A stretch of DNA of 64,000 nucleotides, taken from NCBI GenBank assembly GCA_963756155.1, contig CAVWMQ010000010.1, positions 8,102 through 72,101 on the forward strand, in the 5' to 3' direction. The stretch is from an uncultured delta proteobacterium (lineage in GTDB: Bacteria > Desulfobacterota > Binatia > Binatales > Binataceae). The notes beneath the pieces were generated by a model, which was not told the DNA's origin, did not search any database, and was given only the letters and a program-made list of their open reading frames with translations. Shown here piece by piece: positions 24,881 through 27,124 of the stretch. How positions within the stretch are numbered: position 1 is the stretch's first letter; the number at the start of each line of letters is the position of its first letter. Position numbers and translations under genes: made by a program.

Positions 24881-27124
24881 ATGATCGATTTTGAACTCGA
24901 ACCGCAGGTCGTGAACCGGCTCAAGATGTACCACGCGGTCGCCGAGCAAATGATGCGGCCGATTTCGCGCGAGTGCGACGAGCATGAGCATCAGAAGCCG
25001 ACGCAGTTTTATGAGACGATGTGGGCCGCGTCAGCGATGGCCGATTTCCAACCCGCGACCGACAGCGCGGTCAAGAAAAACGGCGGCGCCGAGAAGGCCG
25101 CCGATCGCGCTCCGCGGCTACGCAATCTCTACACCGTGTTGAGCACCGAAGAGCTGTGCTGGGGCGATGCCGGGCTGTTCCTGTCGACTCCCAACGCTGG
25201 CCTCGGAGGTGCCGCGGTGATGGCGGCCGGTACCGCGCAGCAGAAAGAACGCTTCCTCGCGCGCTTCAAGGGCGGCAAGCCGAAGTGGGGCGCAATGGCG
25301 ATAACCGAGCCCGGCTGCGGCTCCGATTCCGCCGCGGTCACCACCACCGCGACTCGCGACGGCGACAACTGGGTCATCAACGGCACCAAGATTTTCTGCA
25401 CCGCAGGCGAGATGGCCGCGGAGAAGTCGGAAGGCTTCGTGGTGGTGTGGGCGACCGTCGACAAGAGCGCCGGGCGCGCCGGGATTAAACCGTTCGTGGT
25501 CGATCATAATACGCCCGGGATGACCGTGACGCGGGTTGAGAACAAACTCGGAATTCGAGCCTCCGACACCGCCGCGCTGGTGTTCGACAACTGTCGCGTG
25601 CCGCTCGACCACATCCTGGGCAGTCCCGAGGTCAAGCGCGAGGGCGGTTTCAAGGACGTGATGGCGACGTTCGACGCGACGCGGCCGATAGTCGCGGCGA
25701 TGGCGATCGGAGTAGGGCGCGCCGCACTCGACTTCGTCGCCGATTTCCTCAAAGAGCAGAACGTCACCGTCCGCTACGGCATCTCGCCGCGCAGGCTCAC
25801 GGCAATCGAACGCGACTTCATGGAGATGGAAGTGCAGCTCAAAGCCGCGCGTCTGCTGACCTGGCGAGCGGCATGGATGCTCGACCTCGGCAAGCGCAAC
25901 AGCCTGGAGGCCTCGATGGCCAAGGCGAAGGCGGGGCTGGCGGTGACCCAGATCACGCAGAAGGCTGTCGAGCTGCTCGGGCCGCTCGGGTACTCGCGAA
26001 CTTACCTGGTGGAGAAGTGGATGCGCGATGCGAAGATCAACGACATCTTCGAGGGCACCCAGCAGATCAACATGCTGATTATCGCGCGGCGGATTCTTGG
26101 ACTACAGCAGCAAAGAATTGAACTGAGACGAGGTATTGAAGTGAAGTTCAGAAAACTCGGGCGCAGCAATATTGCGTTGGCGGAGATTGGACTCGGATGC
26201 ATGGGCATGTCGGACTTCTACGGCCCACGCGACGACGCTGAATCGCTCGCGACGATCCGCCGGGCGATCGACCTCGGCGCAAATTTTCTTGACACCTCCG
26301 ACACCTACGGTCCTCATACCAACGAGCTTTTGGTCGGGCGCGCGATTGCGGGCCGCCGCAGCGAAGTGGTGCTGGCGACCAAGTTCGGGATCGTTCGCAC
26401 CGTGAATCCTCCGTCGCGATCGATCAACGGCAAGCCGGAGTATGTGCGCAGCGCCTGTGAAGCGAGCCTCAAGCGCCTGGGCGTGGACGTGATCGATCTT
26501 TATTACCAGCATCGCGTCGATCCGAACACGCCGATCGAGGACACCGTCGGCGCAATGGCGCGGCTGGTGGAAGAGGGCAAGGTCCGCTACCTGGGGCTTT
26601 CCGAAGCGGGGCCGAAGACGATCCGCCGCGCGTGCAAAGTCCATCCGATTTCGGCCCTGCAATCCGAGTATTCGCTATGGAGCCGCGATCCAGAGGATGA
26701 GATTCTGCCGCTGTGCCGCGAGCTTGGAATCACGTTCGTGGCGTACAGCCCATTGGGTCGCGGCTTCCTGACCGGGCAGATCAAGCGTTTCGAAGACCTG
26801 GCGCCCGACGACTTTCGCCGCTTCTCGCCAAGGTTCCAGGGCGAGAACTTCCAGAAGAACCTGGCGCTGGTCGATCGTATCAGGCAGATGGCCGCCCAGA
26901 AGCGATGCACCGCGGCGCAGCTCGCGCTCGCGTGGGTGCTCGCGCAGGGCGAGGAGATCGTGACCATCCCCGGCACCAAGCGCATCTCGTACCTGGAAGA
27001 GAACCTGGGCGCGCTCAATGTGAAGCTGACCGCGGACGATCTCAGGAAGATCGACGACATTGCGCCGCGAGGAGTCGCAGCGGGCGAGCGGTATCCGGCG
27101 GGCATGCAGGTGACGAGCGAGTGA
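24881..27124 (+). CDS. acyl-CoA dehydrogenase fused in-frame to aldo/keto reductase (747 aa), possibly two genes joined by loss of a stop or a frameshift
   Basis: Residues 1-~415 are ACAD (…[18 protein letters not shown]…[19 protein letters not shown]). Residues ~421-747 are a complete AKR ([28 protein letters not shown]…[13 protein letters not shown]…LSEAG…). An SD-like GAGG at 26129-26132 followed by an in-frame GTG at 26141 suggests the AKR has its own start. A TGA sits in the +1 frame at 26124-26126. Confidence 0.7.

Follow-up and report, generated by a model that had tools for sequence, protein, structure and literature searches.

A 747-aa acyl-CoA dehydrogenase–aldo-keto reductase open reading frame in a Binataceae contig is very probably two neighbouring genes merged by one extra base

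The closest described relatives of the locus reported here are the stand-alone acyl-CoA dehydrogenases (ACADs) of Candidatus Binataceae that make up the P0001 cluster, with orthologues in Chloroflexota, Myxococcota and other groups, and these share with it an upstream ACAD partner of 369 aa. Its second constituent resembles the AKR13-type aldo-keto reductases (AKRs), namely perakine reductase (3uyi/3v0s) and the bacterial IolS/YhdN-like enzymes. Frameshifts are known to arise from residual indels in long-read assemblies, as described in two reports (PMC9262707, PMC12007338). In the 64-kb stretch of DNA analysed here (the window), an ACAD and an AKR are read as a single ORF of 747 aa, and it is very likely that these are two ordinary neighbouring genes merged in the window by one extra T, that is, by a frameshift and not by the evolution of a fusion.

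The ORF starts at an ATG and occupies 24881-27124 (+). The first-pass annotation had described it as a complete ACAD followed by a complete AKR, and both the ORF call and Pfam bear this out. The N-terminal, middle and C-terminal ACAD domains (PF02771, PF02770 and PF00441) lie within aa 16-406, all three scoring above the Pfam gathering score, and the C-terminal model is covered over positions 2-150 of 150. The canonical fold ends at aa 406 and not at about aa 415 as had been proposed. Codons 1-406 (24881-26098, +) are in the authentic frame and encode the complete canonical ACAD fold. Residue 406 aligns to residue 377/378 of 5ol2_C, which is near the end of solved ACADs, and identity to the 414-aa stand-alone Binataceae ACADs is at least 97% over aa 1-406. 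The segment IFEGTQQIN aligns with IYEGTSEV of 5ol2_C, with FEGT standing against the YEGT of solved ACADs. Residues E391, G392 and T393 are invariant in the protein alignment, and the Glu of this motif is presumably the catalytic base, as established for Glu376 of MCAD.

The AKR domain (Aldo_ket_red, PF00248) spans aa 435-727 of the ORF, matching positions 1-289 of the 291-position model with 263 bits. The in-frame GTG reported earlier at 26141 is indeed present (26141-26143) and forms codon 421 of the ORF; from it runs a gene of 327 aa with the full PF00248 model (26141-27124, +), which is a separate gene in the relatives. Among solved structures, perakine reductase is the nearest (3uyi_A, E = 1.7e-95, residues 5-320), and the alignment to it shows that the Asp-Tyr-Lys-His tetrad motifs are kept. 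No NCBIfam equivalog cut-off was reached by the AKR, the best match being YdjG with 181 bits vs 550. Since both halves matched specific ACAD or AKR equivalogs of NCBIfam only below threshold, we regard them as generic members of their superfamilies.

When 5.8 billion proteins were searched with the 747-aa ORF, the 120 best matches were all stand-alone ACADs of 410-438 aa, many of them labelled Candidatus Binataceae or Binatus, and none of the 120 covered the AKR half. In the assembly index, neither the 747-aa product nor the neighbouring 369-aa ACAD had an exact match. P0001 (414 aa) was the closest homologue among the matches listed. This protein and its relatives end in ...ARRIL-[DGNE]-Y-S-S-K-E-L-N, and 119 of the 120 homologues end exactly eight residues after RRIL, in the form x-Y-[SG]-x-x-x-L-x, the remaining one being partial. 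Furthermore, in a set of 80 species-representative loci from Binatia, Chloroflexota, Myxococcota and others, the ACAD stop was found at the same position, after an x-Y-S-x-x-x-L-x tail, in all 79 loci with a complete 3' end.

Five contigs could be compared closely with the window. Four are JGI metagenome contigs that encode P0001 and are syntenic with the window (L001-L004), and the fifth (L005, Ga0070761_10071081) comes from another metagenome and was found by an exact-pattern scan allowing either form of the junction. Neither form was matched in genome_contigs, and in metagenome_contigs the scan returned one contig only, which does not have the extra base. The five contigs are 96-98% identical to the window at the nucleotide level, and the extra T is missing in every one of them. 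The alignment demonstrates an insertion in the window: the junction reads ATTCTTGGAC there vs ATTCTGGAC in the relatives, the sole length difference in the alignment, with L001-L004 aligned as ATTC-TGGAC opposite the window sequence. DNA alignment and blastn gap mapping place it at the TT of 26097-26098 (+), one of the two bases being the insertion where the close relatives have a single T, and the extra T comes directly after ACAD codon 406 (CTT). Where long enough, L001-L004 have the ACAD (414 aa) and the AKR (327 aa) called as two genes 14 nt apart. The spacer between the called genes is bounded by 7245/7260 in L001, 3589/3604 in L002 and 1865/1880 in L003, and in these three contigs the AKR was called at the homologous GTG (96.9% identity by tblastn, residues 1-327). 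Over the 9.2 kb in which the window and L001 are 98.1% identical, the extra T is the only coding indel, and the other window indels relative to L001-L003, at 23710, 27227 and 28854, are all intergenic.

The authentic end of the ACAD is still present in the window DNA. Its last eight codons and stop (26100-26126, +), GAC TAC AGC AGC AAA GAA TTG AAC and TGA, encode DYSSKELN and now lie in the +1 frame. Translation from 26001 in that frame gives ...LDYSSKELN and then the TGA at 26124-26126, which is the C-terminus of P0001 and its family, and this stop, 14 nt before the GTG, had been located correctly by the first-pass annotation. The original intergenic spacer of 14 nt follows (26127-26140, +) and is read as codons in the window ORF; it is the same as in the relatives except for one substitution at 26128. 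Its SD-like GAGG is really at 26130-26133, 7 nt before the GTG, and not at 26129-26132 with a distance of 8 nt, and both the SD and the GTG of the AKR are intact. Similarly, the linker that had been estimated at about six residues comprises 14 (aa 407-420) and is the out-of-frame reading of the last eight ACAD codons, the stop and the spacer. After the fold, the ORF as written reads GLQQQRIE... and runs on, and no stop codon precedes the AKR in its own frame; the x-Y-[SG]-x-x-x-L-x tail with its stop is found in the window only in the +1 frame or after removal of one T. The in-frame continuity is no statistical oddity, since it takes one inserted base and 14 stop-free codons.

Deletion of one T in silico produced a 414-aa ACAD with 410 of 414 residues identical to P0001, followed by the TGA, the 14-nt spacer and the GTG as in the relatives. 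The frameshift that had been put forward as one of two possible explanations of the ORF is thereby upheld, and the proposal that a single-base indel would restore the stop, the 14-nt spacer and the start agrees with what is seen in the five related contigs. The indel is a change from T to TT outside any homopolymer tract, and not the homopolymer indel that had been suggested. L001-L013, like almost all of the 80 species-representative loci, are metagenome contigs or MAGs and may contain errors of their own; despite this, the comparison loci are concordant at the insertion site.

A separate irregularity was observed in L005 (480-1508, -), where the AKR contains a 2-nt deletion at the position equivalent to window 26804-26805. 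This results in a 342-aa ORF with the C-terminal third shifted, and the tblastn match is split over two frames. It represents either decay of the AKR in some members of the clade or an assembly error of that contig.

In the more distant loci the two genes are not neighbours. The AKR was sought by tblastn in eight further Binataceae loci (L006-L013), whose ACADs have 78-86% protein identity, and was not found; genes in convergent orientation directly follow the ACAD in these loci, and in other Binataceae this place is taken by convergent hypothetical and OmpA-like genes. Within 2.5 kb of the ACAD, no AKR was present in any of the 80 species-representative loci. The AKR lies next to the ACAD only in the closest clade of the window, and across the loci compared no conserved adjacency or coupling of ACAD and AKR genes was found. 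The AKR is thus a recent insertion at this position, and its adjacency to the ACAD is itself recent and clade-specific, which argues against functional coupling. That the relatives might instead carry the derived state was ruled out since 79 of 79 species over several phyla share their stop position; by this comparison it is the window that has the derived state.

The other reading offered by the first-pass annotation, a rare natural fusion, would require an evolved and selected bifunctional ACAD-AKR enzyme with a natural domain architecture. The continuity of the ORF and the completeness of both domains are what such an enzyme would show, and nothing else speaks for it. However, when the orthologous loci were compared, as the first-pass annotation had proposed, the continuous ORF was present in 0 of 5 close relatives, 0 of 8 further Binataceae loci and 0 of 79 species representatives, with the ACAD and AKR not even adjacent outside the closest clade. 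A filter-free HMMER search of 1.84 billion (1.84e9) cluster representatives gave no ACAD+AKR architecture within its best 150; all six multi-stretch matches of at least 480 aa were ACAD-ACAD or AKR-AKR, and just three matches, all among these six, were about 690-770 aa long. This architecture listing reached about 295 bits, and very distant fusions scoring lower would fall outside it, but these have no bearing on the window locus. A literature search for ACAD-AKR fusions found nothing relevant. Furthermore, the supposed linker consists of an intact out-of-frame tail, a stop and a spacer, and the SD and start codon behind it are preserved. We therefore consider an evolved fusion enzyme to be highly improbable.

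The ORF is instead very probably explained by the merging of two genes. Gene 1 is a 414-aa ACAD that comes second in a two-ACAD pair of wide conservation, and gene 2 a 327-aa clade-specific AKR13-like reductase, predicted to be independently translated from its own Shine-Dalgarno sequence and GTG start. The extra T at 26097/26098, after ACAD codon 406, shifts the reading frame such that the DYSSKELN tail and its TGA are read as GLQQQRIEL. The 14-nt spacer is then read as RRGIE, taking translation straight into the AKR frame and giving 747 aa. Nothing was found that contradicts this single-base-insertion account.

The insertion site was also considered as a programmed +1 ribosomal frameshift at CUU-G (26096-26099), by which one mRNA would yield both the 414-aa ACAD and the fusion. 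Slipping by +1 there would bring the authentic ACAD tail and stop back into frame. However, programmed frameshift sites are conserved among orthologues, and at this locus every relative has the unshifted sequence, so that no conservation of the site was found. Inspection of the sequence revealed neither a stop or hungry codon at the A site, such as prfB-type sites have in CUU UGA, nor an SD-like stimulator immediately upstream, and a +1 slip would leave the tRNA-Leu opposite UUG. Without conservation or a recognisable motif, this candidate was dropped, and we regard it as even less credible than an evolved fusion.

The upstream partner ACAD (23741-24850, +; 369 aa) lies outside the fusion ORF and has the Pfam ACAD N, M and C domains. 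A gene of 369/370 aa is found directly upstream of the ACAD in L001, L002, L006-L009, L011 and L012, and most of the 80 species-representative loci have a full-length homologue immediately before their ACAD of 410-420 aa. The two-ACAD module (23741-24850 together with 24881-26126) is thus conserved. The upstream protein ends in ...SALDGLATV followed by the stop, and by eye it has Asp in the place of the catalytic Glu of (Y/F)EGT. Its Pfam C-terminal match stops at position 136 of 150, with the final helix apparently missing. Mycobacteria have alpha2beta2 FadE pairs, to which the two-ACAD module can be likened, and by analogy the module may be a heteromer with one non-catalytic subunit.

Several other features of the window were noted. 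Upstream of the two ACADs, the 550-aa mechanical ORF at 21993-23645 (+) over-extends a GFO_IDH_MocA oxidoreductase gene; both the codon-usage map and the corresponding genes of the relatives, called at 368/369 aa, put its true start near 22536. Two neighbouring OmpA-like paralogues are encoded at 28974-29684 (-) and 28064-28849 (-), a call based on their C-terminal sequence and on PF00691 OmpA matches of the homologous genes in L002 and L006. By eye, both have an N-terminal hydrophobic, Gly-rich segment with a Cys, which is suggestive of a pair of putative lipoproteins. The first of the two (28974-29684) also contains about 26 consecutive prolines, which make a rigid spacer linking its N-terminal segment to the OmpA domain. 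No Rfam family was found anywhere in the window.

Both the ACAD and the AKR are under strong purifying selection. Between the window and L001/L002, the restored ACAD has a dN/dS of 0.03, the AKR one of 0.12 and the upstream ACAD one of 0.16, the value of 0.03 implying that the ACAD has been strongly constrained over practically the entire divergence. The 27 nt that follow the insertion are the same as in the relatives, and in the spacer there is one substitution. The low dN/dS together with the unchanged 27 nt means that the frameshift is either extremely recent or absent from the organism.

We infer the origin of the extra T from the quality of the surrounding sequence and from this constraint. 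The account that we marginally prefer is a sequencing, assembly or polishing error, in which case the organism has two normal genes. Selection on the ACAD as strong as that found here and the lack of substitutions downstream of the insertion are consistent with an error, and since the eight-residue tail is conserved across phyla, selection should act against its real loss. The public contigs of this clade do contain frame-breaking indels, for example the 2-nt deletion in the L005 AKR, and many Binataceae genomes in collections are long-contig MAGs. Against an error stands the condition of the rest of the window, which is clean with about 46 intact genes on the codon-usage gene map. No other frameshifted or split gene was found in the 64 kb by the codon-usage map or by Pfam on adjacent same-strand ORFs and ORFs from low-coding stretches, and the Pfam domains on ten adjacent same-strand ORFs were complete and unrelated. 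The stretches 53000-56000, 58200-60200 and 61300-63200 hold no confident gene by codon usage and were uninformative in this check. The ORFs tested from 53000-56000 and 59148-60122 had no Pfam match above gathering score, with one sub-threshold DUF3108-like match seen at 53780-54562. Long homopolymers inside genes were read correctly, at least five of at least 7 nt lying within intact ORFs, and the insertion site itself is no homopolymer.

Since the site is not a homopolymer and no other such event is present in the window, a real mutation is nearly as likely. It would be a very recent event in the strain or population, producing a chimeric ACAD(1-406)-linker-AKR with the AKR probably also initiated independently, and we rate it somewhat below an even chance. 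The otherwise accurate appearance of the assembly would fit, as would the position of the insertion, which comes once the canonical ACAD fold is finished, so that both domains remain complete and the cell could tolerate the product. In the intergenic region between the GFO_IDH_MocA gene and the first ACAD, at 23710, the window differs by 1 nt in a second T run, with GATGC where L001 and L002 have GATTGC; this window-specific difference is as expected of natural indel variation. However, none of the five close relatives carries the extra T, the tail that would be lost is conserved in all 79 complete species-representative genomes, and nothing points to adaptation to the fused state. On balance, we place an artefact somewhat ahead of a real mutation.

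If the extra T is real, the strain would make an ACAD that lacks its family-specific eight-residue tail and has the AKR appended to it; with only the tail replaced, the FEGT motif and the canonical ACAD fold would be intact. In this case the AKR would probably still also be made alone from its own intact ribosome-binding site. A bolder version is that the birth of a fusion gene has been caught in the act, with a stable chimera that is tolerated or useful and an AKR that is also self-started. This would mean that a one-base insertion right behind the last helix of the ACAD fold had removed the stop and linked two complete enzymes, the FAD-dependent ACAD and the NAD(P)H-dependent AKR, and we consider it unlikely.

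The main value of these results is in quality control. If the 747-aa ORF is taken at face value, a spurious ACAD-AKR architecture would enter databases and could suggest a functional link, one that the comparison of loci does not support since the AKR came to lie beside the ACAD recently and in this clade alone. The locus should be annotated as two genes, the ACAD with a frameshift at 26097/26098. Should the insertion be real, the locus would be a minor but clean example of a stop-loss frameshift that creates a fusion ORF. The fusion is no evolved feature, and the finding is ordinary.

Among the known systems, the prfB frameshift is like the window in having CUU at the shift point and the authentic C-terminus in the +1 frame, but the window site has no conservation in orthologues, no in-frame stop and no SD stimulator, and is therefore no member of this class. 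With the AKR13-type reductases the window AKR shares the full-length PF00248 domain and the tetrad motifs, and it differs in that the predicted protein scores below every NCBIfam equivalog cut-off. Frameshift fusions and pseudogenes of draft and long-read assemblies, as they are treated in two reports (PMC12007338, PMC9262707), likewise involve a single-base indel that merges or breaks neighbouring genes and becomes visible against close relatives; the window differs from these assembly frameshifts in that its site lies outside a long homopolymer and is the only such event found in the window. The P0001-type loci are the nearest match, sharing with the window the gene order UvrA, Cu-oxidase_4, GFO_IDH_MocA, ACAD, ACAD. 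What sets the window apart from them is that the x-Y-S-S-K-E-L-N tail and its stop lie out of frame and the ORF continues.
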